Part shown: positions 4,747 to 21,836 of the stretch, piece by piece
Layout: every line of letters starts with the position of its first letter
Numbering within the stretch: position 1 is the stretch's first letter
Source of the DNA: Corynebacterium amycolatum
Lineage (GTDB): Bacteria; Actinomycetota; Actinomycetes; Mycobacteriales; Mycobacteriaceae
Reading direction: 5' to 3' (one strand)
NCBI RefSeq assembly: GCF_049243625.1
Contig: NZ_CP046975.1
Length of the DNA: 32,000 bases
Position numbers and translations under genes: made by a program
Notes under the pieces: generated by a model
Told to the model about the DNA's origin: nothing
Seen by the model: the letters and a program-made list of their open reading frames with translations, nothing else
The model's database searches: none

Positions 4747-4799
4747 CTGGACAAGCACTAGCTGGGCAAGGCTCGCTGGACAAGAACTAGCTGGCCGGC
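4732..4799. repeat. 15-bp tandem array ctggacaagcactag (~4.5 copies) starting inside the menD 3' end
   Basis: Copies at 4732-4746 (contains the menD TAG), 4747-4761 (identical), 4762-4775 (degenerate, 14 bp) and 4776-4790 (1 mismatch), then a decayed copy. Confidence 0.85.
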
Positions 4800-4858: not shown

Positions 4859-5350
4859 ATGCAGTGGAAAACTGCCCTGGCCAATTGGCCGCGCTTCCTT
4901 CGTCAGGTGCTGCTCTTTGTAATTATTTGCCTGTTACTTTCGTGCCTGGCCATGGTGGTTGGCTGCTTCATTAATGACCGCAATATCGAGTCGAACATGG
5001 GGCAGTCCGTAGCCAATGTGCGCTCGGTCGAGCTTCTTCGCACCACGGTCGATTTCGTCGACGAGAATGGTGACTTTCAGTCGCCACCAACCGGCTTGCT
5101 CTATCCCGTTGGTCTGGAAGAGGGGCAGCGCGTCCGCGTCGAATACGACCGCACTGACCCCAATGTCGTCCGCGTCGCCGGACGCACTTGGACGCTGTCG
5201 CTTCTCCCGGCTGCCAGCATCGCTGTGGTTGCGTTTATCGTCGTCGCGCCGTTGTGGTGGTTGTCGTTGCGCGCAACCCGTCGTTTACAAAGAGATCCCC
5301 AAAAGGTAAACAGAGGGTCACTTTCGCTTTCCGACGAGATGGAAAACTAG
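4859..5350 (+). CDS. small two-TM membrane protein (DUF3592-like; positional counterpart of Rv0556)
   Basis: ATG 4859 is preceded by AAGGAGG (4841-4847). The product has an N-terminal TM (VLLFVIICLLLSCLAMVVGCF), a soluble middle and a C-terminal TM (LLPAASIAVVAFIVVAPLWW). The 315-aa ORF-track version overlaps menD out of frame and was trimmed. Confidence 0.7.
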   Translation: MQWKTALANWPRFLRQVLLFVIICLLLSCLAMVVGCFINDRNIESNMGQSVANVRSVELLRTTVDFVDENGDFQSPPTGLLYPVGLEEGQRVRVEYDRTDPNVVRVAGRTWTLSLLPAASIAVVAFIVVAPLWWLSLRATRRLQRDPQKVNRGSLSLSDEMEN

Positions 5351-6573: not shown

Positions 6574-7266
6574 GTGTCTAGGGCTGATTTAACGAAAAAT
6601 CCCAGCGAAGTCGCCTCGATGTTCGACGGCGTGGGAAAGAATTACGACATCACCAATACCGTGCTCACCGGTGGTATTGACCACTACTGGCGCGTGCGCA
6701 CGGCAAAGCGCCTGAACCTGCAGCCTGGCCAGAAGGTTCTCGACCTGGCCGCCGGTACGGCTGTTTCCTCAGTGGAGTTGGCAAAGTCTGGCGCGTACGT
6801 CGTTGCCTGTGACTTCTCCCGAGGCATGCTCAAGGCCGGTGCGCACCGCAATGTTCCCAAGGTCTGCGGTGACGGCATGAAGCTGCCATTCCCGGACAAC
6901 ACCTTCGACGCGGTGACCATCAGCTTCGGTCTTCGCAACATCGTGGACTACAAGGCGGGCCTCGCCGAACTAGCCCGCGTGACCAAGCCCGGTGGCCAGC
7001 TAACAGTCTGTGAGTTCTCCACCCCTGTGGTGCCAGTGTTTAGCACTTTCTACAAGGAGTACTTGATGCGGGCACTGCCGCAGATCGCCAAGGTCGTCTC
7101 CTCGAACCCGGAGGCCTACGTGTACTTGGCGGAGTCGATTCGCGCCTGGCCAAATCAGCCGCAGCTCGCCCGCGACATCAATGCCTCGGGCTGGGAGGAT
7201 GCTGGTTGGCAGAATCTCACCTTTGGCATCGCGGCGCTGCACTCGGCAACCAAGCCCGCGCAGTAG
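6574..7266 (+). CDS. menG: demethylmenaquinone methyltransferase (UbiE/MenG/MenH family)
   Basis: [16 protein letters not shown]..., the SAM motif VLDLAAGTA and FGLRN are family hallmarks. GTG 6574 lies 10 nt after the mgtA stop. The ORF-track start at 6433 overlaps mgtA. Confidence 0.85.
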
Positions 7267-7288
7267 CTCGCGAGCTCGCAATCGGGCT

Positions 7289-7313
7289 GGGGCGCGGGGC
7301 CCGTCGTAAAGCA
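7289..7313 (+). repeat. bipartite 25-nt motif, copy a (GGGGCGC-GGGGCC-CGTCGTAAAGCA)
   Basis: Read directly from the sequence. It sits between the convergent menG (stop 7266) and the reductase gene (stop 7318-7320). Confidence 0.8.
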
Positions 7314-7317
7314 GTTT

Positions 7318-8670
7318 TTACCGCCAGGGCTGGCGTCCAAACCACTTATCGGAGGCCAGCGCCGCCTGCCCCGAAGCGCGCCACAGTCGCGCTACCACAT
7401 CCCGGTCGTGTTCCGTGACCAGGTTTCCCATCAGGCGTGCGGCAACACCCATGAACTGGCCGCCCCACGGGGCGCCGATGGTTATCGGGCCGACGGTCGG
7501 CAGGAAGCTCGGGTACGTCAACGTCAGTGCCAACTTGCGAGCCAGCGAGAAGCCGGTGCCGTAGTGTTCGCGAAGCAGGGCGGGCCAGGAGTGAGTCAGC
7601 CCATCGCGACCCGCACCAATCGAACTCATCAGCTCCACCGCTAGCCGCGCCGACTCCATGCCGTAGTCAATGCCCTCGCCGTTGAGCGGGTTGACCAGGC
7701 ACGCAGCATCACCGAGCAACGCCCAGTTCGGCCCCGCCACATTCGACACGGCACCACCCATCGGTAGCAGCGCCGACGTCACGTGCTCCGGTTCGCTCAT
7801 CTGCCACTGCTCACGCACCTGCCCGTGGTACTCGCGTAGCAACTTCTTCACGTTCGCGCGCGCCGGGCGTGCCGACGTCGCCAGCGCCCCGCACCCCACG
7901 TTCGCCCGGCCTTCTCCCAGCGGGAAAATCCAGCCATAGCCCGGGTGCGTCTGCCCCTCGGAGTCGCGCAGTTCCAGGTGCGAGTGAATCCAGCCATCCG
8001 CTACGTCCGCGCTGTCGAAGCTGACGTATGACCGCGCGGCCACGCCAAAGACGCTGTCGCGATGCCACGCACGCCCCAGCTGCTTACCGACGGTACTTCG
8101 GACCCCATCGGCCACGAGCAGCCAGCGGGCCGAGATGGTGTGTGGCTTGCCTTCGCGGTCGGAAAGTTCCACCTCGCGCACGCCGTGACCCCGCGTGCCA
8201 CCACTGCTTAGCGCTCCGAGAACCACCTTCCGCGCAGTGACCCCATCAAAGACTTGTGCTCCGGCATCAGCGGCGGCATTGAGCAAGAAAGTGTCGAGCT
8301 CAACACGCGGCATCGCGGATCCGACAGCGGGAAAAGTGCCGGAGGCATCATCTGGCCAAGGTGCGGTGATGGAGCCGCCGAAGCCGTGCAGCTTGAGTCC
8401 GCGGTTACGGTTGCGGCGCAGGAGCTCGTCGTCAAGCCCTAGGCGATGTAGCTCAGCGATAGCGCGAGGAGTGAGTCCGTCGCCACAAGTCTTGTCGCGC
8501 GGGAAGCGCTGCGAGTCGACCACAGTGACCGAAAAACCGGCGCGGGCGGCGTGAATTGCGGCTGCGGAGCCGGTGGGGCCAGCGCCAACAATGAGCACGT
8601 CAGTGCTGCTGGGTAGAGCGACGGCGCCGTCGAACGTGGGGGAAACTCGCGAAATCGGGCTTGAGGTCAT
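7318..8670 (-). CDS. menJ: geranylgeranyl reductase-family flavoprotein (MenJ-like menaquinone reductase)
   Basis: The FAD fingerprint VLIVGAGPTGSAAA, then KTCGDGLTPRA and the PLNGEGI motif. ATG at 8670 gives 450 aa. Synteny matches Rv0561c; the symbol is tentative. Confidence 0.8.
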   Translation of the reverse strand: MTSSPISRVSPTFDGAVALPSSTDVLIVGAGPTGSAAAIHAARAGFSVTVVDSQRFPRDKTCGDGLTPRAIAELHRLGLDDELLRRNRNRGLKLHGFGGSITAPWPDDASGTFPAVGSAMPRVELDTFLLNAAADAGAQVFDGVTARKVVLGALSSGGTRGHGVREVELSDREGKPHTISARWLLVADGVRSTVGKQLGRAWHRDSVFGVAARSYVSFDSADVADGWIHSHLELRDSEGQTHPGYGWIFPLGEGRANVGCGALATSARPARANVKKLLREYHGQVREQWQMSEPEHVTSALLPMGGAVSNVAGPNWALLGDAACLVNPLNGEGIDYGMESARLAVELMSSIGAGRDGLTHSWPALLREHYGTGFSLARKLALTLTYPSFLPTVGPITIGAPWGGQFMGVAARLMGNLVTEHDRDVVARLWRASGQAALASDKWFGRQPWR

Positions 8671-8788
8671 TGCCCCAGCGTATAACGACGTTGAAACAAA
8701 TATGGGAACTGGTCTGCTAGCCACTATGCTCGTAGGGTAGTTTATTTAGCAGTTTCTTATCTTTTATCGTCAGTTAGGCAGGTCTCGA

Positions 8789-9844
8789 ATGCGTACTGGA
8801 GACTACTCCGGGCTTAGTTCCGGAAGTGCTCAGGGCACTGGTGAGCACACCGCCACTAGTTCTCACTTCGTTGATGAGGCGCTGGAAGCAACAATCACCG
8901 AGGGAATGCGCAAGAGCGAGGACCTCCTGATTACTGAGCTGGGGCGCGGCGAGGACTTCCTAGCCGAGCGGGTTTCCCACCTAGCTCAGGCTGGTGGTAA
9001 GCGCTTCCGCCCAATGTTTACCATGCTGTCCGCGCAGTTCGGTGAGCAGCCCGAGAGCGATAACGTCATCACGGCTGCGACTGTGCTGGAGTTGACGCAC
9101 CTGGCGACGCTCTACCACGACGACGTTATGGATGAAGCGGACAAGCGTCGCGGTGTGCCCTCCGCAAACTCGCGCTGGGACAACACCGTCGCCATTCTGG
9201 CCGGTGACTACCTCTTCGCTGCTGCATCCCGCCTGCTGGCGGAGCTCGGTTCCGAGAGCGTAGCCCACTTCGCCGAGACCTTCGGTGTTCTTGTCACAGG
9301 TCAGATGCGTGAGTGCCTCAACGACTTGGACCTGCCGATTGAAGAGCGCATCGAGCGCTACCTGAAGGTCATTGCCGAAAAGACCGGTGTGCTCATCGCA
9401 TCGGCTGGTTATCTCGGTGCCTATCACGCCGGTGCGTCCGCCGATATTTCCAACGCACTGCGCCGCTATGGCGAACTAATCGGCATCGTTTTCCAGATCG
9501 TCGACGACATCATCGACATCTCCTCCAACACAGATCAGTCCGGCAAGACTCCGGGCACTGACTTGCGCGAGGGCGTCTTCACGCTACCGGTTCTCTACGC
9601 GCTGCAGGAGGACACCCCAGCCGCTGACCGTCTCCGTGAGATTCTCGTCGGCCCAGTCTCCGAGGACGCGCTTGTCGACGAGGCCCTCGAGCTCCTGGCT
9701 CAGACCAACGGCGTGGCTCGCGCGATGGAGAAGGTCAATGAACTGCTGGATGAGTCCGACCGCGTCATCGCTGACCTTCCCGACTGTGCGGCCAAGGATG
9801 CTCTGCGTCACGTTGCTCGCTACACCGTGGAGCGCGTGGGGTAG
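8789..9844 (+). CDS. trans-polyprenyl diphosphate synthase (GrcC1/HepT-like, menaquinone side chain)
   Basis: Both Asp-rich motifs are present (LYHDDVMDEADKRRG and FQIVDDIIDI). It is divergent from the reductase gene, as in the Rv0561c/Rv0562 pair. Confidence 0.88.
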   Translation: MRTGDYSGLSSGSAQGTGEHTATSSHFVDEALEATITEGMRKSEDLLITELGRGEDFLAERVSHLAQAGGKRFRPMFTMLSAQFGEQPESDNVITAATVLELTHLATLYHDDVMDEADKRRGVPSANSRWDNTVAILAGDYLFAAASRLLAELGSESVAHFAETFGVLVTGQMRECLNDLDLPIEERIERYLKVIAEKTGVLIASAGYLGAYHAGASADISNALRRYGELIGIVFQIVDDIIDISSNTDQSGKTPGTDLREGVFTLPVLYALQEDTPAADRLREILVGPVSEDALVDEALELLAQTNGVARAMEKVNELLDESDRVIADLPDCAAKDALRHVARYTVERVG

Positions 9845-9882
9845 TGGATTGAGCTCCACTGTCGAGACGAACCTAGGGGCGA

Positions 9883-9932
9883 GCTCTGCTGAGAGTTGGG
9901 CCCTGCTGGGGGTGAGCCCTGCTGAGGGGTGA
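9883..9932. repeat. 16-17-bp tandem repeat gcYctgctgRgRgtKgR x3 downstream of the synthase gene
   Basis: Copies at 9883-9899, 9900-9915 and 9916-9932. The last two differ only by one inserted base. Confidence 0.75.
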
Positions 9933-9967
9933 ATCCAAGTAGGAAAATGTCCTCCTTACCTGCCGAT

Positions 9968-9997
9968 TTGTGTAAATGACAGAGTAGTGGGTAGCAT
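9968..9997 (+). promoter_or_regulatory. candidate promoter of tRNA-Tyr (TTGTGT-18 nt-TAGCAT)
   Basis: The hexamers are read from the sequence. The same architecture and flanking block occur upstream of tRNA-Thr. No transcription start site data. Confidence 0.3.
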
Positions 9998-10023
9998 TCC
10001 ATTCGCACCGTTTAAGAGTGCAC

Positions 10024-10105
10024 GCCAGATTGCCCGAGCGGCCAAAGGGAGCGGATTGTAAATCCGTCGGCATTGCCTTCGTTGGTTCGAATCCATCATC
10101 TGGCA
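10024..10105 (+). tRNA. tRNA-Tyr (GTA), class II with long variable arm
   Basis: Acceptor gccagat/atctggc, anticodon loop ttGTAaa, T-loop TTCGAAT. CCA is not encoded. Confidence 0.9.
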
Positions 10106-10110
10106 CAGTG

Positions 10111-10150
10111 AAATCACCGCGAGATTTTTCTCGCGGTGATTTTTTGTTTG
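10111..10150 (+). terminator. rho-independent terminator after tRNA-Tyr
   Basis: 14-bp perfect stem aaatcaccgcgaga/tctcgcggtgattt with a 4-nt loop, followed by a T-run. Confidence 0.85.
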
Positions 10151-10178
10151 TAGGAGCTGTTGGTGGGGATACGGGGCA

Positions 10179-10220
10179 GGGTTCGGGCTAGGGGTTCGGG
10201 CTAGAGGTTCGGGCTAGGGG
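10179..10220. repeat. 13-bp tandem repeat gggttcgggctag x3 (G-run rich)
   Basis: Copies at 10179-10191, 10192-10204 and 10205-10217 (1 mismatch). The CTAG in each unit gives stop codons in all six frames. Confidence 0.85.
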
Positions 10221-10349
10221 CGGCCACCCATCGATGAGCTATTCACTTATGGTTCCGCTGGGGCTCATCGATAAGTGAATAGATTATCCATAAGTGCGCG
10301 CCAAAATGTCAGCAAACGTGACAAGAAATACCGCTGCCTACCTGCTGAT

Positions 10350-10379
10350 TTGTGCTCAGTGGTGATTTCGGGTTAATCT
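10350..10379 (+). promoter_or_regulatory. candidate promoter of tRNA-Thr/tRNA-Met (TTGTGC-18 nt-TAATCT)
   Basis: It shares the block ctacctgcYgatttgtg and an upstream aaaatgtc with the tRNA-Tyr upstream region. Confidence 0.3.
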
Positions 10380-10466
10380 TTGCAAGGCTTCACGGAGAGC
10401 ACAGAGCGAAACGAAGCGGTCAACAATTGGCCACGGAGTTACGTGCTGAGTTCAATGGATGCTGAT

Positions 10467-10539
10467 GCCCCCTTAGCTCAGTCGGCAGAGCGTTTCCATG
10501 GTAAGGAAAAGGTCGACAGTTCGATTCTGTCAGGGGGCT
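10467..10539 (+). tRNA. tRNA-Thr (GGT)
   Basis: Acceptor gccccct/agggggc, anticodon loop atGGTaa, T-loop TTCGATT. Confidence 0.9.
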
Positions 10540-10578
10540 CTGTTCTTTTATACGGACTTATGTCCGGTAGAGAATAGG

Positions 10579-10652
10579 GGCGATGTAGCTCAGATGGTGA
10601 GAGCGCACGACTCATAATCGTGAGGTCGGGGGTTCGATCCCCCCCATCGCTA
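10579..10652 (+). tRNA. tRNA-Met (CAT), elongator type
   Basis: Acceptor ggcgatg/catcgct, anticodon loop ctCATaa. The anticodon stem lacks the three G-C pairs typical of initiator tRNA. Confidence 0.88.
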
Positions 10653-10755
10653 CTACGGACAGTGATGTTCGTCGAACCCCGCCTTGATTATGCAGCAATG
10701 CAGTAAGGTGGGACATTGTCAGCTAAGGGCTGGAAAGCTCTTTTGCTGGTGGTGA

Positions 10756-10828
10756 AGGGGCGTGGCTCAATTGGTAGAGCAGCGGTCTCCAAAACCGCAG
10801 GTTGCAGGTTCGAGTCCTGTCGCCCCTG
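10756..10828 (+). tRNA. tRNA-Trp (CCA)
   Basis: Acceptor aggggcg/cgcccct, anticodon loop ctCCAaa, T-loop TTCGAGT. This is the conserved position upstream of secE. Confidence 0.9.
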
Positions 10829-10833
10829 CAAGT

Positions 10834-10885
10834 ACCCGTCATCCAGGGCGTATGAAAATGCGTCTGGGTGGCGGGTTTTTCGTTT
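10834..10885 (+). terminator. rho-independent terminator after tRNA-Trp
   Basis: acccgtcatccagggcg pairs with cgtctgggtggcgggt (with G-U pairs), followed by ttttt. Confidence 0.7.
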
Positions 10886-10914
10886 ATATTCGGCGGCGGT
10901 GGGTCAATGCGAGT

Positions 10915-10981
10915 TACTGACTGCGGTTATGTCAAAAATGGCTCGAAAAATGGCTTGAAAGTGTCATAAACTCGCACAGTT
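10915..10981. repeat. 67-bp palindromic element, copy B (decayed)
   Basis: An ungapped alignment to copy A (2732-2798) gives 47/67 identities by my count: arms 16/20 and 15/20, centre 16/27. It has the same 20+27+20 layout. Confidence 0.6.
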
Positions 10982-11027
10982 TCACATTTGCAGCCCGTAG
11001 TCTGGTGGGTCGTCCTTTTTGCAGCCC

Positions 11028-11070
11028 AAGCTTGCAGCACGAGCGAGCAGTCCAGGCTTGCAGCACGAGC
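11028..11070. repeat. 17-bp direct repeat aRgcttgcagcacgagc x2 (period 26)
   Basis: 11028-11044 and 11054-11070 are 16/17 identical. The nearby ttgcagccc also occurs twice (10988, 11019). Confidence 0.7.
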
Positions 11071-11339
11071 TAGGGCGAAGCAGCAGTGAAGCGGCCGTCA
11101 GTGAGTATCGCTGCGGCCAGCAGCGGAATCGAATCTCGAAGCCTGCGGTTCCCACGAAGCGCATTTCTTCGATAGTGTGGATAATCGGCTAGAATTTACG
11201 CACTGAACCAGACTTGCTCTGCACAGTGGGGGCTCGGCTCCGGAGATTGTCCCTGGAGTTTGCTCTTGAAGAATTCACGTTTGAGTTTCACTGTGCAGTA
11301 TCTTTAGGTCTCATATGCACGAAGTAGCGAAGGAGCATC

Positions 11340-11648
11340 GTGTCTGAGGAAAACCAGACTTTCCAGGCGGCGGCTCGCCCGTCCGGTAAGCGCCAGGCGA
11401 CGGGCGCGCAGACCACCGTGTCGAAGAAGCCTGCGCGTGAGAAGGAGACCAACGAGCTTTCGACTCGTAACCCTTTGGTTTTCATCAAGCAGGTTGTTGA
11501 CGAGCTGCGCAAGGTGATTTGGCCGACCGGCCGCCAGATGGTCACCTACAGCATCATCGTGATCCTGTTCCTGATTGCCATGATTGCTCTCGTGTGGGGT
11601 GTGGACACGCTGGCCGGTCTGGGTGTCCGATCGGTGTTGGGCAAGTAA
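11340..11648 (+). CDS. secE: preprotein translocase subunit SecE
   Basis: GTG start with AAGGAG 4 nt upstream. The product has a basic N-terminus, then FIKQVVDELRKVIWPTGRQ and a single C-terminal TM. Conserved position before nusG. Confidence 0.9.
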   Translation: MSEENQTFQAAARPSGKRQATGAQTTVSKKPAREKETNELSTRNPLVFIKQVVDELRKVIWPTGRQMVTYSIIVILFLIAMIALVWGVDTLAGLGVRSVLGK

Positions 11649-11839
11649 TCGGTTATACTGTTTCGCAGTGATGCTTTTCATCCCGCCTCCGAGTTCCGGA
11701 CGGCGGGATTATTCGTTAGCGCAGCTGGTGTCTTGCTGTGCGAAGTGATTGCGGATGGCATATTGGCTCTTAAGACTCTTTGAGCGAAGATGCCAATGTC
11801 GCGAACCGTTGATGTAGATACAAGAGGGGTTAGCACGAC

Positions 11840-12703
11840 ATGAATGATGGTCAGAATATTTTCTCCGACGCCCAGTCCGCGGATGCTGCCGCAACTGAGC
11901 AGGATGCGCAGGGCGCACCGGCTCAGGTAGAAGCTCCGGCCGAGGGTGCAGCCGCAGCCGACGCAGCCGCAGCTAACACTGCCGCAGCAGAAGCAGCGCC
12001 GGCAGAGGAGACCGCCGCTGACGCTGAGGCGCAAGCAGCTGCTGACGCAGACGCCGAGTACCGTAAGCGCCTGCGCGAGTTCCAGCGTGAGCTCAAGCGT
12101 CGTCCGGGCGACTGGTACATCATCCAGTGCTACTCCGGCTACGAGAACAAGGTGAAGACCAACCTGGAAATGCGTGCCCAGACCATGGGGGTCGATGAGC
12201 AGATTCACGAGGTCATCGTTCCGGTTGAGGAAGTCGAAGAGCGCAAGGACGACGGCAAGAAGAAAATCGTTAAGCGCAAGCTGCTGCCGGGCTACGTTCT
12301 GGTCCGCATGAGCCTGGATGACCCGTCCTGGTCCGTCGTCCGCGACACCCCGGGTGTTACTTCCTTCGTCGGTAGCGAGGGTCAGCCGTCCAAGGTCAAG
12401 ATTCGTGAGGTCGCTAAGTTCCTCATGCCGAAGGAGACCATCACCGCGGACGCCGCTGAGGAAGCTGCAAATGCCGACGGTGAGCTGGCTGTCGCAGCGG
12501 CTCCGCAGGCAGAGAAGAAGGCCGTAGCCATCGACTACGAGGTCGGCGAGTCCGTCACCATCCTGTCCGGCCCGTTCGCATCTGTGGCTGCGACCATCTC
12601 CGAGATCGACCCGGACACCGGCCGCATGAAGGCCCTGGTTTCCATCTTCGGCCGTGAGACCCCGGTCGAGCTGGGCATCGATGAGGTCGAGAAGCTGAAC
12701 TAG
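11840..12703 (+). CDS. nusG: transcription termination/antitermination factor NusG
   Basis: [19 protein letters not shown] (NGN domain) and a C-terminal KOW domain ([18 protein letters not shown]). The Ala/Glu-rich N-terminal extension is usual for actinobacteria. Confidence 0.92.
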
Positions 12704-12733
12704 GCCTCGCACTAAGCGGACCTCGCACTAAGC
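12703..12733. repeat. 15/16-bp tandem duplication (core cctcgcactaagc x2) abutting the nusG stop
   Basis: Perfect 13-bp cores at 12705-12717 and 12721-12733. The stop TAG is at 12701-12703. Confidence 0.85.
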
Positions 12734-12805
12734 CGGGCGGCAAGCCAAGCGCCGAGCAAAGGCACCAGCTAGCTCTCTCGAGCAACCAATCTGGTAACGG
12801 ATTTT

Positions 12806-12852
12806 GATGCACGCCATACGCTGCGGTAACGTAGCCAGGCGTGCATTTTTGT
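12806..12852 (+). terminator. rho-independent terminator after nusG
   Basis: Stem atgcacgcc/ggcgtgcat (9 bp) with a 22-nt loop, followed by ttttgtg. Confidence 0.7.
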
Positions 12853-12937
12853 GCCTTGAGCACAGATGTGCCAAGTAATTCGTATCCCCGGTGGCTGGCA
12901 CCAACTCGATGACCAGCGCCAGCGGCCATGATGGTCG

Positions 12938-12962
12938 TGGGCGCAAGGGTCGTCGTAAAGCG
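12938..12962 (+). repeat. bipartite 25-nt motif, copy b (TGGGCGC-AAGGGT-CGTCGTAAAGCG)
   Basis: Read directly from the sequence. Its end lies 75 nt upstream of the rplK ATG. Confidence 0.8.
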
Positions 12963-13036
12963 TCGGCATCCGGACGGGGTGAGTCGCCTTTTCATCGGGG
13001 CGGCGTGCCCCGGTAACTAGGAAGTAGGTTAATCCG

Positions 13037-13474
13037 ATGGCTCCGAAGAAGAAGCTTTCTGCGATCATTAAGCTGCAGATCCAGGCTGGTCAGGCTAACC
13101 CGGCTCCGCCGGTTGGTCCGGCACTGGGTGCCCATGGTGTCAACATCATGGAGTTCTGCAAGGCTTACAACGCAGCAACTGAGAACCAGCGTGGCAACGT
13201 TGTCCCGGTTGAAATCTCCGTCTACGAAGACCGCTCCTTCACCTTCGTTCTGAAGACCCCGCCGGCAGCTAAGCTGCTGCTGAAGGCCGCTGGCATTCAG
13301 AAGGGCTCTGGCGTTCCGCACACCAACAAGGTCGGTTCCGTGACCTGGGAGCAGTGCAAGGAAATCGCCGAGCTGAAGAAGCCGGACCTGAACGCTAACG
13401 ACATCGAGATGGGTGCACGCATCATCGCCGGTACCGCTCGCTCCATGGGCATCACCGTCGAGGGCGCTAAGTAA
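13037..13474 (+). CDS. rplK: 50S ribosomal protein L11
   Basis: [31 protein letters not shown]... is canonical L11. Confidence 0.97.
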
Positions 13475-13575
13475 ACCGTCAGCGTTTAGCTGCACCTTCA
13501 TCAAGTGGTAGGGCCAGCTTCGGCCCGCTAAACACCACAATCCAACCATTTCACTTAATTGAGATTGGACTTTTC

Positions 13576-14280
13576 ATGAGCAAGAACTCTAAGGCATACC
13601 GCGCCGCCGCCGAGAAGATCGACGCCGGCCGCATCTACTCTCCACTCGAGGCCGCTAACCTGGCCAAGGAGACCTCCTCCAAGAACTACGACGCCACGAT
13701 TGACGTTGCTATCCGCCTGGGCGTTGACCCGCGCAAGGCTGACCAGCTGGTTCGCGGCACTGTCTCCCTGCCGAACGGCACCGGTAAGACCGTTCGAGTC
13801 GTCGTTTTCGCCGCTGGCGAGAACGCCACCAAGGCTGAAGAGGCCGGCGCTGACTTCGTCGGTTCCGAGGAACTGATCGAAAAGATTCAGGGTGGCTGGA
13901 CCGACTTCGATGCTGCAATCGCGACCCCGGACCAGATGGCCAAGGTTGGTCGCGTGGCTCGTATCCTCGGCCCGCGTGGTCTGATGCCGAACCCGAAGAC
14001 CGGCACCGTTACCCCGGATGTCGCTAAGGCTGTCACCGAGATTAAGGGCGGTAAGATTTCCTTCCGCGTTGATAAGGCTGCAAACCTGCAGGCTGTTATC
14101 GGTAAGGCTTCCTTCGACGCCGAGAAGCTGGCCGAGAACTACGGTGCGCTTATCGACGAGCTGATGCGTCTCAAGCCATCCGCTGCTAAGGGTAAGTACC
14201 TGAAGAAGATCACCGTCTCCGCCACCAATGGCCCGGGCATCCCGGTTGACACCAGCGTGATCAAGGACTACACCGCCTAA
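13576..14280 (+). CDS. rplA: 50S ribosomal protein L1
   Basis: [16 protein letters not shown]...[21 protein letters not shown]... is canonical L1. Confidence 0.97.
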
Positions 14281-14350
14281 ATCAGCATCAGCCGATAGGC
14301 GAGTGTGCTCTTCACAAGTCGCTCGAGGGTGACTCAGAGCCAAGCTCTTT

Positions 14351-14400
14351 AAAACCGCCGCCACGCGCACTTTCTCCCGGTGTGTGAGGCGGCGGTTTTG
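14351..14400. terminator. bidirectional-type intrinsic terminator after rplA
   Basis: aaaaccgccgcc (14351-14362) pairs with ggcggcggtttt (14388-14399). An A-tract lies upstream and a T-tract downstream. Confidence 0.75.
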
Positions 14401-14437
14401 CATTCTCATAAGGGATACCGATAGCGCGGTGGGGGTT

Positions 14438-14462
14438 TGGGCGCGGTAGACGTCGTAAAGCG
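14438..14462 (+). repeat. bipartite 25-nt motif, copy c (TGGGCGC-GGTAGA-CGTCGTAAAGCG)
   Basis: Read directly from the sequence. Its end lies 73 nt upstream of the ATG at 14535. Confidence 0.8.
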
Positions 14463-14534
14463 AATTGCTAATCCAAAGAACTAATCGAGCCGAAATGGAC
14501 TCACAGCCAAAGTTTGTTGCTTAAAATCGCGACT

Positions 14535-15167
14535 ATGACGTTGATTTTGGAACCCGAAGAAGGGCTGGAGGCGCTTGGCGAGATTAATCGCCTGGCGCAG
14601 CTCGACGACGGTTCCGGAATTATTGAACCGCAGCTCATCTCGTACCTCGACTCGTTGGGCGACGACGCCTATGACATGCCTTGCCTGCGCATCGCGGGGC
14701 AGACGCTGCTGGGCGAGGTACTGACGGGGCTAGGGGAGGACGAGCGCGTAGCTGAGGTGCTTCGCCGCAATATCCAGGATTCTGTGGTGCTTGCGGGGAT
14801 GAGCGAGGAGGAAGCTCTGCAAGCTCGGGCGGCGCAGGTCGTGGTCGTGCGGTTGCTGCGCATCATTGCGCGGATGGAGGCCGTGGAGCTTCGCAACGCC
14901 GTGGCGCAGCAGTGCCTGGCATCGCAGATCCCGCCGGTCGTGCGTGTGGCATTGACACTCACCGTGGATATTCTCGATGCCGCCAGGTTGGACGCGCATC
15001 CCGACGACATGGTGCGCGTAGTACTCGACTATGCAGACCAAGTGCTCTGGCTTGCCGACGATGACCTGAATGCGTACTTTGCCGAGCTCGAGATGATTGT
15101 GCAGCAACGTGAGAAGGACCTGGAGTTCGGCCGCTTTGGAGAGCCTGGTGCGGCGCGCTTTGGATAG
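14535..15167 (+). CDS. hypothetical acidic, probably all-helical protein (no family recognised)
   Basis: 210 aa from ATG 14535 (the ORF track starts at TTG 14514). It is Asp/Glu/Leu-rich and has coding-like third-position GC. G-ending codons dominate, unlike the neighbouring r-protein genes. No obvious SD. Confidence 0.55.
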   Translation: MTLILEPEEGLEALGEINRLAQLDDGSGIIEPQLISYLDSLGDDAYDMPCLRIAGQTLLGEVLTGLGEDERVAEVLRRNIQDSVVLAGMSEEEALQARAAQVVVVRLLRIIARMEAVELRNAVAQQCLASQIPPVVRVALTLTVDILDAARLDAHPDDMVRVVLDYADQVLWLADDDLNAYFAELEMIVQQREKDLEFGRFGEPGAARFG

Positions 15168-15172
15168 GCGAT

Positions 15173-15200
15173 TTGATTAATTGCCTGGGTCTGGTATAGA
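15173..15200 (+). promoter_or_regulatory. candidate rplJ promoter (TTGATT-16 nt-TATAGA)
   Basis: The hexamers are read from the sequence, 6 nt after the stop of the upstream ORF. This would give a ~350-nt leader. Confidence 0.3.
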
Positions 15201-15445
15201 GTTTCTTCACGAAGTTTGACCGGCTTCCAATCGGCACCAACATTAAGTTGGGACGATGGAGGTTGGTACTCAAGTTTCACCGAAGACCGTCGGTCATTCG
15301 CTTTGAAAGAAGCGGATTGAAGGTTTCATTGTAGGAATACAGTGAGCGGCCCACGCAGGAGGACTTGGAAGCGCTTGCGCAGTTTGGCTTCACCTGCTGG
15401 CCCTGGGGTCGGCGGAGTTGAAGTGGAACATGCCAAAAGAATTGT

Positions 15446-15487
15446 GCGCCCCATCCTTGTGCGAGGATTGGGGCGTTTGTTGTATTT
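15446..15487 (+). promoter_or_regulatory. terminator-like hairpin inside the rplJ leader (possible L10-leader attenuator)
   Basis: cgccccatcc (15447-15456) pairs with ggattggggcg (15465-15475) with one bulge, followed by tttgttgtattt. It lies ~70 nt upstream of the rplJ ATG. Confidence 0.45.
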
Positions 15488-15554
15488 GCGCAAAAGAATC
15501 CTTCACTTGGCCGAGCGGAAAATTGCAAAGACCAGGAAGGAGGCGAGAGTACAC

Positions 15555-16067
15555 ATGGCAGCAAATACTGAGAAGATTGCAGCTGTTGCAGCGCTGAAGC
15601 AGGACGTCGAAGAGTCCAACGCTATCGTGCTGACTGAGTACCGCGGCCTGTCCGTTGCGGAAATCACGGAACTGCGTCGCGCCCTCGGTGCTGATGTTAA
15701 GTACTCCGTCGCCAAGAACACCATGATCAAGATCGCTGCCGACGAGGCAGGGATTGAGGGTCTTGATGAGCACCTGAACGGCCCGACTGCAGTCGCCTTC
15801 ATCAAGGGCGAGGCTGTGGATGCGGCTAAGGCGATTAAGAAGTTCGCCGGTGACAACAAGAACCTCGTGATCAAGGGCGGCTACATGGACGGTGCTGCAA
15901 TCGATGCAGCACAGTTCGAGGCTCTTGCGGATATGGATAACCGTGAGACCACGCTGGCAAAGCTGGCTGGTGCCTTCAACGGCGTTCTGGCGAACGTCGC
16001 TGGCCTGCTCGATGCTCCGACCTCCTCGGTTGCCCGCCTTGCTGCGGCACTCGAGGAAAAGAAGTAA
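15555..16067 (+). CDS. rplJ: 50S ribosomal protein L10
   Basis: [42 protein letters not shown]... with GAAGGAGG upstream. The ORF-track start at 15342 is a leader read-through. Confidence 0.95.
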
Positions 16068-16079
16068 TCCCGAGCGGCT

Positions 16080-16097
16080 CGCGAACTACGCGAACTA
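16080..16097. repeat. 9-bp tandem repeat cgcgaacta x2 after the rplJ stop
   Basis: Perfect copies at 16080-16088 and 16089-16097. A partial cgcgaa follows at 16103. Confidence 0.8.
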
Positions 16098-16191
16098 AAT
16101 CACGCGAAAAACTTTTAAATATCACTTTGACGGCTTCGACCCCAGGGATCTCTGAGGGGAGCGGCCGCACCACACTCATAGGAGAATATCC

Positions 16192-16575
16192 ATGGCTAAG
16201 TACACCACTGAGGAACTGCTCGAGGCTTTCAAGGAAATGACCCTCGTTGAGCTCACCGAGTTCAAGAAGGCTTTCGAGGAAGAGTTCGACGTCACCGCTG
16301 CTGCTCCGGTCGCAGTTGCTGCTGCAGGCGCTGCTGGCGGCGAGGCTGCTGCTGAGGAGAAGGACGAGTTCGACGTCGTCCTCGAGGACGCTGGCGCTAA
16401 GAAGATCGGCGTTATTAAGGCTGTCCGCGAGATCGTCTCCGGCCTGGGCCTGAAGGAGGCTAAGGAGATGGTTGAGTCCGCTCCGAAGGCTATCCTGGAG
16501 GGTGCTTCTAAGGACGACGCTGAGGCTGCTAAGGCTAAGCTGGAAGAGGCTGGCGCAAAGGTCTCCCTCAAGTAA
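16192..16575 (+). CDS. rplL: 50S ribosomal protein L7/L12
   Basis: [34 protein letters not shown]...[10 protein letters not shown]... is canonical and very close to the corynebacterial L7/L12 I recall. Confidence 0.97.
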
Positions 16576-16624
16576 TTCAGTTACTTGCTTCGGCCCCGGT
16601 AGTGGCCTAAAGCTGCCAATTCTG

Positions 16625-16672
16625 ACCGCCAATTCTGGGCTTCTTGCCCGGGGTTGGCGGTTCTTTTGTTTC
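16625..16672 (+). terminator. rho-independent terminator after rplL
   Basis: A long stem, accgccaattctgggc/gcccggggttggcggt (with G-U pairs), followed by tcttttgttt. The direct repeat gccaattctg x2 (16615, 16628) overlaps the 5' arm. Confidence 0.8.
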
Positions 16673-16798
16673 TGGGGCCTTTGCCAACCCGCCTGACCCG
16701 GGCAAAACCTCACTAATCTCACCCGTCACAGGAAGTTGGGGCAAAAACCAGCCCACTCATTGTCTTGATTGCCCTTATTGGCCTGTAAAGTATCTAAC

Positions 16799-17764
16799 AT
16801 GCTCTCACGGCCGAGAATTTTGTCTATCCTTCTATTGGGTCTAGGCACTGCACTGCTTGCTGCTGGCATCTTGCTGCCCAAAGTGCTCAATGTTGATCCC
16901 AAAATGCCGCTTAACCTGCCGCCGGTGTCGTACACCCTGCGGGCGGAAGACAGCGTATCCACCAGGATTAACGAAGAAGGCAAGCGCGAAGAAGTGCACT
17001 CGCCGCTGCAGAGACAGCTCCACGGCGTACTCATCGAACCTGCCGATGCGGACAAGGTTTCGCTCCGTGTCGGTGTGACTGAAATGCGTGAGCTTCCCCC
17101 GGAGGTCATGGGCACCGACCCGCTGACCGAGCTTATCGAGGCCAATATCTGGACAGTGACCATCGACCGACTCACCGGCGAGGCGCTGGCTCCTGCGACG
17201 CTTGTCGACCGCATGGCGGGCGTTCCGCGGTCTGTGGCTTTCGAGGGGAACTGGGTGAAGCTCCCGGCCGACACGGAGGAAAAGGAATATCTGATCTTTG
17301 ATGATTTCCTCCACGATTCCCTGCCAGCAAAGTTTGTCGGGGAAGAGGAACGCGGCGGCAACCGCGTTCTGCATTTCCGTCAGGATATTGAGAAGACGAA
17401 TCTCGCCCAGAAGTACCGTTCTTACGTCTCTCAGCTAACTCAGGATGACAAATCCGGGTTCCTCCAGTACCAGGGCACCCGTGATTTTTGGGTTGAGCCG
17501 AAGTCTGGCTCGGTCATCGATATGGCCGAGGACATCCACCTTTGGTGGGAGACTCGCGATGGCGAGCCGATCATGGACTACCTGCGCTTCAACGGAAAGA
17601 TGGACGAAGGCCTTTCCAATCAGCTTCTCTTCGGCGCAATACAGAATTTCCAGCGCCCGGCTCTAGAGCCGTGGTCAATCGGTCTCATTACGTCCGGTTC
17701 GATTCTGGTATTCATCGCAATCGTGGGCATCGTGCGTCCTTCGACCCGTCGTAAAGCAGAGTAA
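16799..17764 (+). CDS. membrane protein with N- and C-terminal TM helices (DUF3068/PorA-family-like, tentative)
   Basis: ATG 16799 gives 321 aa. TM helices are ILSILLLGLGTALLAAGILL and IGLITSGSILVFIAIVGIV. There is no SD. TAAAGT at 16786-16791 lies 7 nt before the ATG, so a leaderless mRNA is possible. Confidence 0.7.
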   Translation: MLSRPRILSILLLGLGTALLAAGILLPKVLNVDPKMPLNLPPVSYTLRAEDSVSTRINEEGKREEVHSPLQRQLHGVLIEPADADKVSLRVGVTEMRELPPEVMGTDPLTELIEANIWTVTIDRLTGEALAPATLVDRMAGVPRSVAFEGNWVKLPADTEEKEYLIFDDFLHDSLPAKFVGEEERGGNRVLHFRQDIEKTNLAQKYRSYVSQLTQDDKSGFLQYQGTRDFWVEPKSGSVIDMAEDIHLWWETRDGEPIMDYLRFNGKMDEGLSNQLLFGAIQNFQRPALEPWSIGLITSGSILVFIAIVGIVRPSTRRKAE

Positions 17765-17777
17765 CGCTTTACGACGG
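17746..17777. repeat. perfect 12-bp inverted repeat ccgtcgtaaagc / gctttacgacgg around the stop codon
   Basis: Arms at 17746-17757 and 17766-17777. The 8-nt loop agagtaac contains the TAA (17762-17764). Confidence 0.9.
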
Positions 17778-17789
17778 CCATAGCGCCCA
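17765..17789 (-). repeat. bipartite 25-nt motif, copy d (minus strand: TGGGCGC-TATGGC-CGTCGTAAAGCG)
   Basis: The reverse complement of 17765-17789 matches the motif with identical spacing. It starts one nt after the stop codon of the upstream plus-strand gene. Confidence 0.8.
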
Positions 17790-18199
17790 GGCCTCCCCCT
17801 TTATATCGGTGACGGGTGAATGCGACACGCCCGATTTGTCAAGTTGTACTAGACAACTGCCAGTTTTTGATATAGGCTAAATCGTTGCGCTGGAATTAGT
17901 GTATCTGTCGCCAGCTCTTTTATAGTTTGCGCTCGGGGCTCGGGGCTATTATGTAGCACCGTTTTTCGTGCATCTAGCTGTTAAAGGAGTTGCCGCGGCG
18001 CCGCCGTTAGGGCTCGGGGGCTCGCCTTTTAAAGGCTGGTCTTGGAGGCCAAGTGGCGGGGGAATCACTTTCGTGTGTGACCAAAGGTTAGACGCAAAGT
18101 ATCCCGGTGCGCAACAGAAATAATTCCTGCAACTTGAATCGCGTATAAACCAAGCGGGCGGAGCGCACCACCGGTTGCCGGTGTGCTCCACCGCGTGAG

Positions 18200-21100
18200 G
18201 TGCTGGAAGGACGCATCTTGGCAGTCTCCCGCCAGACCAAGGCAGTAACCGGTATTCCCGGAGCTTCGAAGAGGTACTCGTTTGCAAAGATTCAGGAGCC
18301 GATTGCGGTTCCTGGTCTGCTCGACCTGCAGCGTGAGTCTTTCGCATGGCTCATTGGCACGCCTGAGTGGCGCGCTCGTCGCCAGGAGGAGCTCGGAGAA
18401 GACGCTCGGGTTACCAGCGGTCTCGAAGATATTCTAGAAGAGCTCTCTCCGATCGAGGACTACTCCCAGAAGATGTCCCTGACGCTGTCGGACCCATGGT
18501 TCGACTCCGTCAAGAACACCGTGGATGAGTCCAAGGATAAGGACATCAACTACTCGGCTCCCCTCTACGTCACCGCGGAGTTCACCAACCGCGAGACCGG
18601 TGAGATCAAGAGCCAGACTGTCTTCATCGGTGACTTCCCGATGATGACGGACAAGGGTACGTTCATCGTCAACGGAACTGAGCGTGTCGTTGTTTCTCAG
18701 CTGGTGCGCTCTCCGGGCGTCTACTTCGATGAGACCATCGACAAGTCCACCGAGCGCCCGCTGCACTCGGTGAAGATTATTCCGTCGCGCGGTGCGTGGC
18801 TGGAGTTCGACGTCGACAAGCGGGACACCGTCGGCGTTCGTATTGACCGTAAGCGTCGCCAGCCGGTCACGGTTCTGCTGAAGGCTTTCGGCTGGACCAC
18901 TGAGGAAATCAAGGAGCGCTTCGGCTTCTCTGAGATCATGATGGCCACCCTGGAGAAGGACGGTGTTGCAAACACCGACGAGGCTCTGCTGGAGATTTAC
19001 CGCAAGCAGCGCCCGGGTGAGCCGCCGACGCGCGAGTCCGCGCTGGCTCTGCTGGAGAACAACTTCTTCAAGCCGAAGCGCTACGACCTGGCCAAGGTCG
19101 GTCGCTACAAGGTCAACCGCAAGCTGGGCCTGGGTACTGAGGTCTCTGGCGAGATGGTCCTGACCGAACAGGATATCGCTACCACCATTGAATACCTCGT
19201 GCGCCTGCACGACGGCGAGAATGTTATGACCTCGCCGGAAGGGGTCGAGATTCCGGTTGAGACCGACGATATCGACCACTTCGGTAACCGTCGTCTGCGT
19301 ACCGTAGGCGAGCTGATTCAGAACCAGGTTCGCGTGGGTCTGTCCCGCATGGAACGCGTGGTTCGTGAGCGCATGACCACTCAGGACGTGGAGTCGATCC
19401 AGCCGACCACTCTGATTAACGTGCGCCCGGTCTCCGCGGCTATCCGTGAGTTCTTCGGTACTTCCCAGCTGTCCCAGTTCATGGACCAGAACAACTCGCT
19501 GTCGGGTCTGACCCACAAGCGTCGTCTGTCCGCACTGGGTCCGGGTGGTCTGACCCGTGACCGTGCTGGTCTCGAGGTTCGAGACGTTCACCCGTCCCAC
19601 TACGGCCGCATGTGTCCAATTGAGACCCCAGAGGGTCCGAACATTGGCCTGATTGGTTCGCTGTCCTGCTACGCACGCGTGAACCCGTTCGGTTTCATTG
19701 AGACTCCGTACCGTCGCGTCCGCGATGGTGTCATCACCGATGAGGTCGACTACCTCACCGCTGATGAGGAAGACCGCTACGTCGTTGCGCAGGCCAACAC
19801 TCCGATCGACGAGAACGGCCACTTCGTTCAGGAGACCCTGTCTGTTCGTAAGAAGGGTGGTGACGTCGAGTCCGTCCGCGCTGATGAGGTCGACTACCTC
19901 GATGTTTCCCCGCGTCAGATGGTCTCCGTGGCTACTGCCATGATTCCGTTCCTCGAGCACGACGACGCTAACCGTGCCCTGATGGGTGCGAACATGCAGC
20001 GTCAGGCTGTGCCGCTACTGCGTTCGGAGGCTCCGTTCGTCGGTACCGGTATGGAGCAGCGTGCTGCTTACGACGCGGGCGATGTCATTGTCGCTTCGGC
20101 CGCCGGTGTGGTCGAGACCGTGTCGGCAGACTTCATCACCATCATGGACGATGAAGGCCAGCGCCACACCTACCTGCTGCGCAAGTTCGAGCGCACCAAC
20201 CAGGGCACCTGCTACAACCAGAAGCCACTGGTTGACGAGGGCCAGCGTGTTGAGGCCGGCCAGGTCATCGCTGACGGTCCGGGTACCGACAACGGTGAGA
20301 TGGCACTTGGTAAGAACCTGCTCGTGGCATTCATGCCGTGGGAAGGTCACAACTACGAGGACGCCATCATCCTGAACCAGCGCATGGTTGAGGAGGACAT
20401 CTTGACCTCGATTCACATCGAGGAGCACGAGATCGACGCCCGCGACACCAAGCTGGGTCCGGAGGAAATCACCCGTGACATCCCGAACGCGTCCGAGGAG
20501 ATGCTGAAGGATCTGGATGAACGCGGCATCGTCCGCATCGGTGCCGACGTTCGCGACGGTGACATCCTGGTCGCTAAGACCACGCCGAAGGGTGAGACTG
20601 AGCTGACTCCGGAGGAGCGCCTGCTGCGCGCTATCTTCGGCGAGAAGTCCCGCGAGGTCCGTGACACTTCCATGCGTGTTCCGCACGGTGAGTCCGGCAA
20701 GGTCATCGGCGTCCGTGTCTTCTCCCGTGAAGACGATGACGACCTGGCACCGGGTGTCAACGAGATGGTCCGCGTGTACGTTGCGCAGAAGCGCAAGATC
20801 CAGGACGGCGACAAGATGGCAGGTCGCCACGGTAACAAGGGCGTTATCGGCAAGATCCTGCCGCAGGAGGACATGCCGTTCCTGCCGGACGGCACCCCGG
20901 TCGACATCATTCTGAACACCCACGGTGTTCCGCGTCGTATGAACATCGGCCAGGTCCTCGAGGTTCACCTCGGCTGGCTGGCGAAGGCCGGCTGGAGCAT
21001 TGAGGGCGACCCGGATTGGGCTAAGCGTCTTCCGGCCGACCTGCACGACGTTCCGTCCGACTCCCTGGTTGCAACCCCAGTGTTCGACGGTGCTGAGAAC

Positions 21101-21688
21101 GAGGAACTCGCTGGTCTGCTCGCGTCGTCCCGCCCGAACCGTGACGGCGAGGTGCTGGTCAACGCTGACGGTAAGGCCACGCTGTTCGACGGCCGCTCTG
21201 GCGAAAAGTTCCCGTTCCCGGTTTCGGTGGGCTACATGTACATGCTGAAGCTGCACCACCTGGTCGACGAGAAGATTCACGCTCGTTCCACCGGTCCGTA
21301 CTCCATGATTACCCAGCAGCCGCTGGGTGGTAAGGCTCAGTTCGGTGGTCAGCGCTTCGGTGAGATGGAGGTGTGGGCAATGCAGGCATACGGCGCTGCC
21401 TACACCCTGCAGGAGCTGCTCACCATCAAGTCCGATGACGTGGTTGGCCGCGTCAAGGTCTACGAGGCAATCGTGAAGGGCGACAACATTCCGGATCCGG
21501 GTATTCCGGAGTCGTTCAAGGTGCTTCTGAAGGAACTGCAGTCGCTCTGCCTGAACGTTGAGGTCCTTTCGGCCGACGGCGTTCCGGTTGAGTTGGGCTC
21601 CTCCGACGATGAGGAACTCGACCACGCGACCGCTTCCCTCGGCATTAACCTGTCCCGCGATGAGCGTTCCGACGCTGACTCCGCATAG
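18200..21688 (+). CDS. rpoB: DNA-directed RNA polymerase beta subunit
   Basis: GTG start. (M)[15 protein letters not shown]...[19 protein letters not shown]... and full-length RpoB blocks throughout the 1162 aa. Confidence 0.98.
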
Positions 21689-21836
21689 TTTCTCGCTTAA
21701 CGACGAAACATTGCGTGAGTATCAGGGGCGGGAAGCCCTAACTCGCGAATAACCCAACACAGACGACAACGTACAAAAACCTCCGCAGAGAATTTGGTTT
21801 CCGCATTACTTCGATGCGGAGGGAAAGGGAAAACAG

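Follow-up and report, generated by a model that had tools for sequence, protein, structure and literature searches.

A genome-wide, lineage-specific DNA word and its extended intergenic form in Corynebacterium amycolatum

Repetitive extragenic palindromic (REP) sequences of enterobacteria and pseudomonads, together with the bacterial interspersed mosaic elements (BIME), are regarded as binding sites for DNA enzymes and as stabilisers of the mRNA upstream of them, and the REP sequences of Escherichia coli bind gyrase. Uptake sequences, which are known as USS (uptake signal sequences) in Pasteurellaceae and DUS (DNA uptake sequences) in Neisseriaceae, were found at 765–1892 copies per genome in three genomes, with 34.5–65% of them in open reading frames (ORFs), where they occupy poorly conserved residues; Actinobacillus pleuropneumoniae has 765 copies, 49% of them in ORFs (PMC2817400). 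In Mycobacterium, the 'Tuberculosis Rho-independent terminator' (TRIT) comprises 147 sequence-conserved, mostly bidirectional palindromes, found in a single genus and confined to a narrow range of positions around stop codons (Gardner et al. 2011, PMC3152330), although their role as terminators is doubtful (10.1101/2022.06.01.494293). The mycobacterial topoisomerase I recognises the hexamer C(G/T)CTT(C/G), needs at least 20 nt and has a large footprint (PMC6379724). Here we compare with these systems a 25-nt motif from a 32,000-nt stretch of C. amycolatum DNA (contig NZ_CP046975.1 of assembly GCF_049243625.1; the whole stretch is referred to as the window). The motif is the extended intergenic form of a genome-wide, lineage-specific DNA word with the core CGTCGTAAAGC[G/A].

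The original prediction, made from the window alone, was of a bipartite motif TGGGCGC-N6-CGTCGTAAAGCG at four intergenic sites. A search with up to three mismatches matched exactly these four. Copy a (7289–7313, plus strand, GGGGCGC-GGGGCC-CGTCGTAAAGCA) lies in the 51-nt gap between the convergent genes for a ubiE-type methyltransferase and a FAD-reductase and ends 4 nt short of the minus-strand reductase stop codon (7318). Copy b (12938–12962, plus, TGGGCGC-AAGGGT-CGTCGTAAAGCG) ends 74 nt upstream of the rplK start codon, and copy c (14438–14462, plus, TGGGCGC-GGTAGA-CGTCGTAAAGCG), which is located past the rplA terminator, ends 72 nt before the start of an orphan ORF (14535–15167). Copy d (17765–17789, minus, TGGGCGC-TATGGC-CGTCGTAAAGCG) begins at the first base after the stop codon (17764) of a PorA-family gene, assigned by Pfam PF11271. 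The predicted contexts, with a and d at stop codons and b and c upstream of start codons, were thus borne out. Both weaker relatives were also found where they had been placed: one within menD at 3971–3995 (plus, CGAACGC-AAGGGC-CGTCGTAAAGCA, encoding ANARAVVKH) and the other at 21694–21705 (minus), six bases past the rpoB stop codon, as part of a degenerate copy at 21694–21718 with the core CGTCGTTAAGCG and the box TCACGCA. Dinucleotide-shuffled sequences gave a mean of 0.04 matches of the bipartite pattern, and none of 100 shuffles reached four. The fixed 6-nt spacing is beyond chance as well, since GGCGC occurs at this offset in 0.2% of random positions vs four of the six exact cores (binomial P = 3e-10). 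The motif is therefore non-random and, as was also claimed, it matched no known regulator site or Rfam family.

The conserved unit of the family proved to be the 11–12-nt core, which in intergenic DNA has an auxiliary GGGCGC box six bases upstream. What had been taken for a four-site intergenic bipartite motif is a family spread over the genome, and about half of its core copies lie within genes and lack the box. CGTCGTAAAGC is the top over-represented 11-mer of the window, with six exact copies, and the 12-mer core with at most one mismatch matches the window ten times vs 0.15 expected. Abundance was estimated from a nearly unbiased sample of 60.4 kb, consisting of the window, its 7.2-kb left flank and an unrelated 21-kb C. 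amycolatum locus. Ten exact 11-mer cores were found there (six in the window, three in the left flank and one in the unrelated locus), i.e. about one per 6 kb, vs about 0.03 expected from base composition. Extrapolation gives roughly 400 exact 11-mers per 2.5-Mb genome. The word is thus kept at several hundred times its chance frequency in C. amycolatum and its relatives, in genic and intergenic DNA alike. Six of the ten exact cores are genic, including all four outside the window, and four are intergenic; the GGGCGC box accompanies every intergenic copy and is missing from every coding one. In a scan of a genome collection with a 17-base pattern, one genome per species, several Corynebacterium genomes were among the matches listed, and those listed from other phyla were mostly chance matches or coding 'LYD'-type ones. 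Six isolated matches in viral contigs gave no sign of a link with phages. A literature search covering the sequence itself, Corynebacterium repeats, REP-associated tyrosine transposases (RAYT) and uptake sequences in Actinobacteria found no description of such a family. The word is real, lineage-specific and, as far as this search reached, undescribed. The original prediction would have been given up had its copies been fragments of a larger known repeat family: they do belong to a larger family, whereas a known one was not found.

Comparison with related genomes confirmed that the motif is conserved as DNA. Ten C. amycolatum strains all retain the core at sites a to d. A close relative, the metagenome-assembled genome (MAG) S30M_St_31 (loci L060 and L122), has retained the menD copy as well as the cores of b, c and d, despite diverged neighbouring intergenic sequence. 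Copy d is conserved there next to intergenic sequence that is unrelated to that of the window, and the degenerate rpoB copy has a perfect core (CGTCGTAAAGCG) at the same site. Site a is absent from L122, where the whole spacer differs. At copy c, the core and spacer are almost invariant over 11 distinct sequences, while 40% of the positions in the flanks vary. At copy b, conservation extends from the core through the rplK 5′ leader; the site reads CGTCGCAAAGCG in two strains, and L122 has the same core with an altered box. The box of copy a also varies between strains (GGGGCGC, CGACCGC, CTGTCGC, GGGTCGC). The coding copies are invariant at synonymous sites across the strains. In the menD copy, none of the 25 positions is variable in the strains and L122, vs 56 of 300 in the flanks, and the alignment indicates that the constraint on this copy extends to synonymous sites.

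Coding copies are found in unrelated genes and are read in two different frames (RRKA and VVK). Full bipartite copies, box included, are present within four genes at other loci: in the tail of a dihydrouridine synthase gene (antisense, PLYDGPSAH), in the ATP-lid of a histidine kinase (AGAVDVVKH), in an exonuclease-like protein (GAVDVVKH) and in the C-terminal tail of a HAD-type protein. The histidine-kinase copy falls in the variable loop of the ATP-lid. The orthologues in the species complex have ADAVDVVKH, and the box in strain 1285_CVIT differs by one Asp-to-Gly change. The alignment of MenD with that of C. sphenisci is gap-free across the motif (ANARAVVKH vs ANARRTTAAV), so the menD copy arose by substitution. 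In two nucleotide and two protein alignments, no pair of filled and empty sites differing by one unit was found, and a new reverse-oriented copy that L122 carries 4 nt past the rplK stop codon replaces window sequence of similar length. Judged from these alignments, the coding copies arose in place by point substitution and not by insertion.

The word occurs in both orientations with no clear polarity. There are four plus-strand and three minus-strand copies in L122 and five and seven, respectively, in L154. The window with its left flank has seven exact copies on the plus strand and two on the minus strand, and its GC skew is too weak to assign the leading strand. Neighbouring copies may also be inverted with respect to each other. 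Perfect inverted pairs were found in a metagenome scan at site d and at a second C. amycolatum locus, where the pair lies within a sortase gene and encodes AVVKP...ALRR. Inverted pairs at or near gene ends were seen at site d, in L154 (9815–9849) and in L020 (5090–5130).

In C. xerosis (L020), C. hansenii (L125) and metagenome contigs with 67–69% GC (L134, L138, L148, L154), the variants CGTCGTCAAGC and CGTCGCAAAGC occur alongside the main form. Matches within one mismatch amount to about one per kb there; they are mostly intergenic and often arranged as inverted pairs or alternating clusters. No copy was found in 20 kb of C. sphenisci, and one was found in C. lactis. Conservation of the GGGCGC box does not extend to C. 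xerosis, C. hansenii or the high-GC contigs, and the bipartite form therefore appears to be specific to C. amycolatum. In L154, from the 69% GC relative, the stretches 7666–7710 and 8002–8046 each have a variant core followed by the same tail of about 33 nt (AGCCCCGCCCCCAGCCGCACCGCTCCCC...), which suggests a longer repeat unit in that genome. In the window, two 26-nt stretches (8416–8441 and 28814–28839) are 88% identical (GCGCAGG-NNN-TCGTCGTCAAGCCCTA). In both, the variant core CGTCGTCAAGC is preceded by GCGC at a distance one base greater than in the main motif. They lie opposite minus-strand ORFs, the reductase gene and an ORF of the urease cluster taken as ureF, respectively, and could represent a sub-family or arise from codon usage by coincidence.

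It is quite possible, though short of probable, that some sequence-specific protein recognises the word in its DNA form and that copies have accumulated via selection or biased transmission. We favour this reading because the over-representation, the constraint at the DNA level, the origin in place, the occurrence in both orientations, the intergenic enrichment, the inverted pairs and the species variants match the described profile of uptake signal sequences. The nearest working model is that of the uptake sequences of Neisseriaceae and Pasteurellaceae, where DNA bearing the word is preferred by a receptor and where uptake and recombination enrich the word in the core genome, coding DNA included. 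In C. amycolatum, a protein would recognise the word as double-stranded DNA. The word would build up site by site through point substitutions, under selection or biased transmission and without spreading by transposition, and hairpins at gene ends would be a by-product of inverted neighbouring copies. The reading by a protein is inferred, and DNA uptake as the process concerned is proposed more speculatively, because no competence is known in the group. It is unlikely that the word will turn out to be the first uptake-signal-like sequence system to be described outside the Proteobacteria, situated in the clade of C. amycolatum and C. xerosis, in which the 12-nt word with its auxiliary box would mark 'self' DNA for a sequence-specific pathway of uptake or recombination.

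Several points weigh against a word of the uptake type. The literature search found neither natural competence nor sequence-biased uptake in Corynebacterium. The density in C. amycolatum is 3–6 times below that of the classic uptake-sequence genomes, and three variants coexist in the high-GC relatives, with no single dominant word. The tight placement of copies 0–6 nt past stop codons (d, rpoB, rplK in L122, L038 and L062) is not predicted by uptake and better fits an RNA or DNA element of gene ends. The orphan ORF beside copy c has no Pfam domain and hence offers no candidate binding protein. The data cover a sample of about 60 kb, short of a whole genome, together with loci many of which were picked because they bear the motif, and the local density may be raised by the many ribosomal and RNA polymerase genes of the window.

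The main rival is a hairpin element of gene ends of the TRIT or REP type, which we consider rather unlikely. Inverted pairs, or a copy together with a degenerate partner at the end of a coding sequence (CDS), would form RNA stem-loops or cruciform DNA, the role of which would be to terminate transcripts, to shield 3′ ends or to keep cistrons apart in highly expressed operons, possibly with a factor that recognises the stem, and single copies would be decayed or half elements. TRIT is a precedent for such elements in the same order (PMC3152330). Hairpin d fits this reading better than uptake. The core-only copy at 17746–17758 (plus, CCGTCGTAAAGCA), which had escaped the original prediction, encodes the last residues (RRKAE*) of the PorA-family protein and pairs perfectly with 17765–17777 to give a 12-bp hairpin that carries the stop codon in its loop (z-score −2.6). 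This hairpin is kept in L060 and L122 with a different loop. The degenerate rpoB copy is located at the tip of a stable local hairpin (z-score −3.45). The distance to the stop codon is 0 nt at d, 4 at a, 5–6 at rpoB, 3–4 at rplK in L122 and 0–4 in L038 and L062, and proximity of 0–6 nt, in either orientation, was also seen at L020-1635. Such proximity would arise rarely if copies were randomly placed in intergenic regions of 96–435 nt. It was first noted at a and d, and it recurs independently at rpoB in the window, at rplK in the relative and at several loci in other strains. One relative with 69% GC has pairs between rpsD and rpoA and upstream of infA, and another strain has a copy 3′ of rplQ.

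The unpaired copies fit a gene-end element less well. Copies b and c and the coding copies are not adjacent to stop codons, many copies lie mid-gene and arose there, and the single copies b, c and menD are conserved as well as the paired one. The folds of seven copy contexts differ, and only hairpin d and the rpoB–rpoC hairpin are better than shuffled sequence. In hairpin d, L117/118 and L121 each have a single change in one of the arms that the other arm does not compensate. The hairpins are not followed by a U-tract, and convergent and divergent pair geometries both occur. TRIT itself overlaps few mapped 3′ ends in M. tuberculosis (10.1101/2022.06.01.494293). The gene-end and the uptake-like readings need not exclude each other.

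It is improbable that the copies are sites for a chromosome-wide DNA enzyme or organiser, such as topoisomerase I or gyrase, relieving supercoiling where heavily transcribed genes end. When reverse-complemented, the core starts with CGCTTT, or CGCTTG in the C-variant, and thus resembles C(G/T)CTT(C/G) (PMC6379724). The copies cluster near rplK, rplA, rpoB and rpoC in the window and near rpsD–rpoA and rplQ elsewhere, and an enzyme of this kind would be in keeping with the constraint on the DNA itself and with the occurrence of the word in either orientation. However, the main variant matches the site at five of six positions, which is possible by chance, and the preference for a hexamer leaves the conservation of 12–25 bases unexplained. 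The link with highly expressed operons may merely mirror the regions that were sampled. The resemblance is a weaker lead.

The chance that the motif is the operator or promoter of one regulon, controlling rplK, the orphan ORF or antisense transcripts through a transcription factor or an alternative sigma factor, is very small. The similar distances of copies b and c to start codons (72–74 nt) and the conservation that starts at the core of copy b and runs into the rplK leader would suit such a site, but the start-codon distance, which the original prediction gave as 73–75 nt, was seen in no other copy and is thus no trait of the family. A σ70 or extracytoplasmic function (ECF) promoter was rejected since box and TAAAGC are 11 nt apart and not 15–19, a spacing that suits no sigma factor, and the hexamer does not end in the T of TANNNT (consensus as in PMC3526491); a promoter scan found nothing at the copies. 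Half of the intergenic copies face gene 3′ ends (a, d and the copies past rpoB and rplK point into them), about half of all copies lie within the coding regions of unrelated genes, and the site is neither a palindrome nor a direct repeat.

Remnants of a small mobile element spread by insertion, i.e. a miniature inverted-repeat transposable element (MITE), the end of an insertion sequence (IS) or a REP sequence moved by RAYT, are equally improbable. Dispersal as a lineage-specific family enriched between genes, clusters of alternating orientation (L154, 7633–8012) and the 46 nt that copies c and d share at 74% identity could be read in this way, but the other copies share nothing past about 29 nt, and the unit is non-palindromic, with no target duplications seen. 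The alignments, in which the coding copies match motif-less homologues without gaps and gain or loss between close relatives looks substitutional and not like clean insertion, contain no unit-sized gaps, and a MITE or IS remnant was rejected for this reason.

With about one copy per 6 kb, the word is about as frequent as Chi in E. coli, and seven of the nine exact copies of the window and left flank lie on the strand of the ribosomal and rpoBC genes, but a polar chromosome-processing signal, either Chi-like or FtsK-orienting (similar to the FtsK-orienting polar sequences, KOPS), is hardly credible, as L122 and L154 show no polarity, known signals are 5–8 and not 12–25 nt long, intergenic enrichment, stop-codon adjacency and inverted pairs are foreign to them, and the GC skew of the window allows no leading-strand assignment.

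Other interpretations were rejected on the basis of the sequence comparisons. A shared RNA structure was dismissed since the seven copy contexts have no common fold. In Rfam searches of the window, only tRNAs and a urease-gene artefact passed the gathering thresholds, and a relaxed search of 7000–22000 returned nothing at any copy. The artefact is a match to '5_ureB_sRNA' (30457–30759, plus, 85 bits) opposite the minus-strand gene for the urease alpha subunit, which most likely reflects the conservation of urease coding sequence and not a small RNA in this organism. An intrinsic terminator was rejected because no U-tract is present past the hairpins (hairpin d is followed by CCATAGCGCCC) and the terminator scan lists no motif copy; the scan did find canonical terminators past rplL and tRNA-Tyr, and a hairpin with a T-run is visible past rplA. 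A small ORF or peptide was ruled out, as the frames through the four copies are inconsistent and one of them contains TAA. With more than about 29 nt shared only between c and d, a larger repeat unit was discarded as well. The word is not a REP or BIME unit either: the 25 nt have no internal dyad, hairpins need two units and copies are genic too. No RAYT transposase (IS200/IS605-like) was present in the loci examined, although the genomes themselves were not searched. Type I restriction–modification sites are bipartite, with about seven specified bases around N6–8, and are not over-represented; the motif, in which 19 bases are specified and whose word is strongly over-represented, was not accepted as a target of this type.

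The window contains several further members of the family. A second copy that had been missed by the original prediction is a variant at 31674–31699 (plus, TGGGCGC-AAGGACT-CGTCGTCAAGCG) with a 7-nt spacer and one core mismatch, at the ureA/ureB end of the urease cluster. Two weak members with one-mismatch cores lie on the minus strand within coding regions. The core at 5325–5336 (CGTCGGAAAGCG) is conserved in L122 and in the strains covering the position, and the other, at 2014–2025 (CGTCGTTAAGCG), is within a menC-type (enolase-superfamily) gene. The gene order of the window is menD, a glycosyltransferase gene, the ubiE-type methyltransferase gene, the reductase gene (minus strand), a polyprenyl synthase gene, four tRNA genes, secE, nusG, rplK, rplA, the orphan ORF, rplJ, rplL, the PorA-family gene, rpoB, rpoC and the urease cluster, and the same locus is present in complete C. 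amycolatum genomes of about 2.5 Mb. Ribosomal protein L1 encoded in the window has the same sequence as entries assigned to C. amycolatum. The orphan ORF (14535–15167, plus), which encodes 210 aa without a Pfam domain, is an unusual insertion in the normally conserved ribosomal gene cluster between rplA and rplJ. It was found, with a length of 210–260 aa, in C. amycolatum, the S30M relative, C. lactis and C. hansenii and is absent from C. sphenisci.

Other repeats in the window are separate from the word. Just upstream of menD (2728–2802), there is an unrelated, near-perfect palindrome of about 75 nt, the arms of which (GAGATACTGACCCCGTTTATGACA...) are 93% complementary, and a copy of it with 71% identity lies between tRNA-Trp and secE (10901–10983). 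The palindrome arm TGTCATAAAC is present, absent or reoriented among C. amycolatum strains and is missing from L116 and L122–L125; this repeat may be a small mobile palindrome or an operator. Three head-to-tail units of about 23 nt (CTAGCTGGACAAGCACTAGCTGG, 87–100% identical) at 4728–4794 overlap the menD stop codon and extend past it. The stretch 31350–31463 is a short-period repeat rich in GTG/ATG on the plus strand; its minus strand reads CAC/CAT and encodes a run rich in histidine, probably the metal-binding tail of a urease accessory protein. Between polyprenyl synthase and secE, where the window (about 9900–11300) has four tRNA genes, some strains have one or two transposase genes (Transposase_mut; rve; L116 3798–6410, L117 5680–6514 and L118 4606–7402), and the word is absent from all these insertions.

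A word of this kind in Corynebacterium would point to an unrecognised whole-chromosome process in a clinically relevant and often multidrug-resistant skin commensal, for which natural transformation, a sequence-specific gene-end factor and a topoisomerase site code are candidates. Words of this type are known in few bacterial families, where they reveal sequence-specific DNA uptake and recombination, and if the uptake reading is true, 'self' DNA would be marked in an actinobacterium of human skin and mucosa. Taken together with TRIT, the word would also suggest that Mycobacteriales, the order of both Corynebacterium and Mycobacterium, repeatedly evolve genus-specific, sequence-conserved elements at the ends of genes. 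The exact 12-mer provides a direct handle for pull-down, DNA affinity purification sequencing (DAP-seq) and uptake experiments.

Among the described systems, the topoisomerase I sites belong to a related order, are asymmetric and serve a site-specific enzyme, and the complement of the core starts with CGCTT. They differ from the word in that only a hexamer is defined, which the main variant matches partially, and such sites are not known to be over-represented as part of a longer word. REP and BIME are likewise short, dispersed and lineage-specific, with hundreds of copies mostly past genes and with alternating clusters. The REP unit, however, is an imperfect palindrome of 20–40 nt, strictly extragenic and linked to RAYT, whereas the unit described here is non-palindromic and about half of its copies are coding, and they arose in place. 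TRIT was compared with the word by description and not by its consensus or model: both are found in the same bacterial order, both are restricted to a genus or clade, conserved in sequence, bidirectional and present in hundreds of copies, and both have a very narrow position at stop codons, starting within the CDS as in hairpin d. The TRIT unit is a palindromic hairpin. Such a hairpin is present at site d and in the pairs of the relatives, whereas most copies of the word are single, non-palindromic units of 12–25 nt which also occur mid-gene.

USS and DUS differ from the word in that no competence or biased uptake is known for Corynebacterium or for any actinobacterium with such a word. They are also denser, at about one per 1–3 kb vs about one per 6 kb in C. 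amycolatum, whereas in the word described here several variants coexist in the high-GC relatives and copies are tightly associated with stop codons. Both have an asymmetric core of 9–12 nt with extra consensus positions at fixed spacing, are over-represented by hundreds-fold, and occur in both orientations and in genic and intergenic DNA. About half of the copies of the word lie in ORFs, which is within the 34.5–65% reported for uptake sequences (PMC2817400), and in both systems the coding copies are placed at poorly conserved residues and arise by substitution. Intergenic enrichment, inverted pairs behind genes and species-specific variants, called 'dialects' in uptake sequences, complete the similarity.

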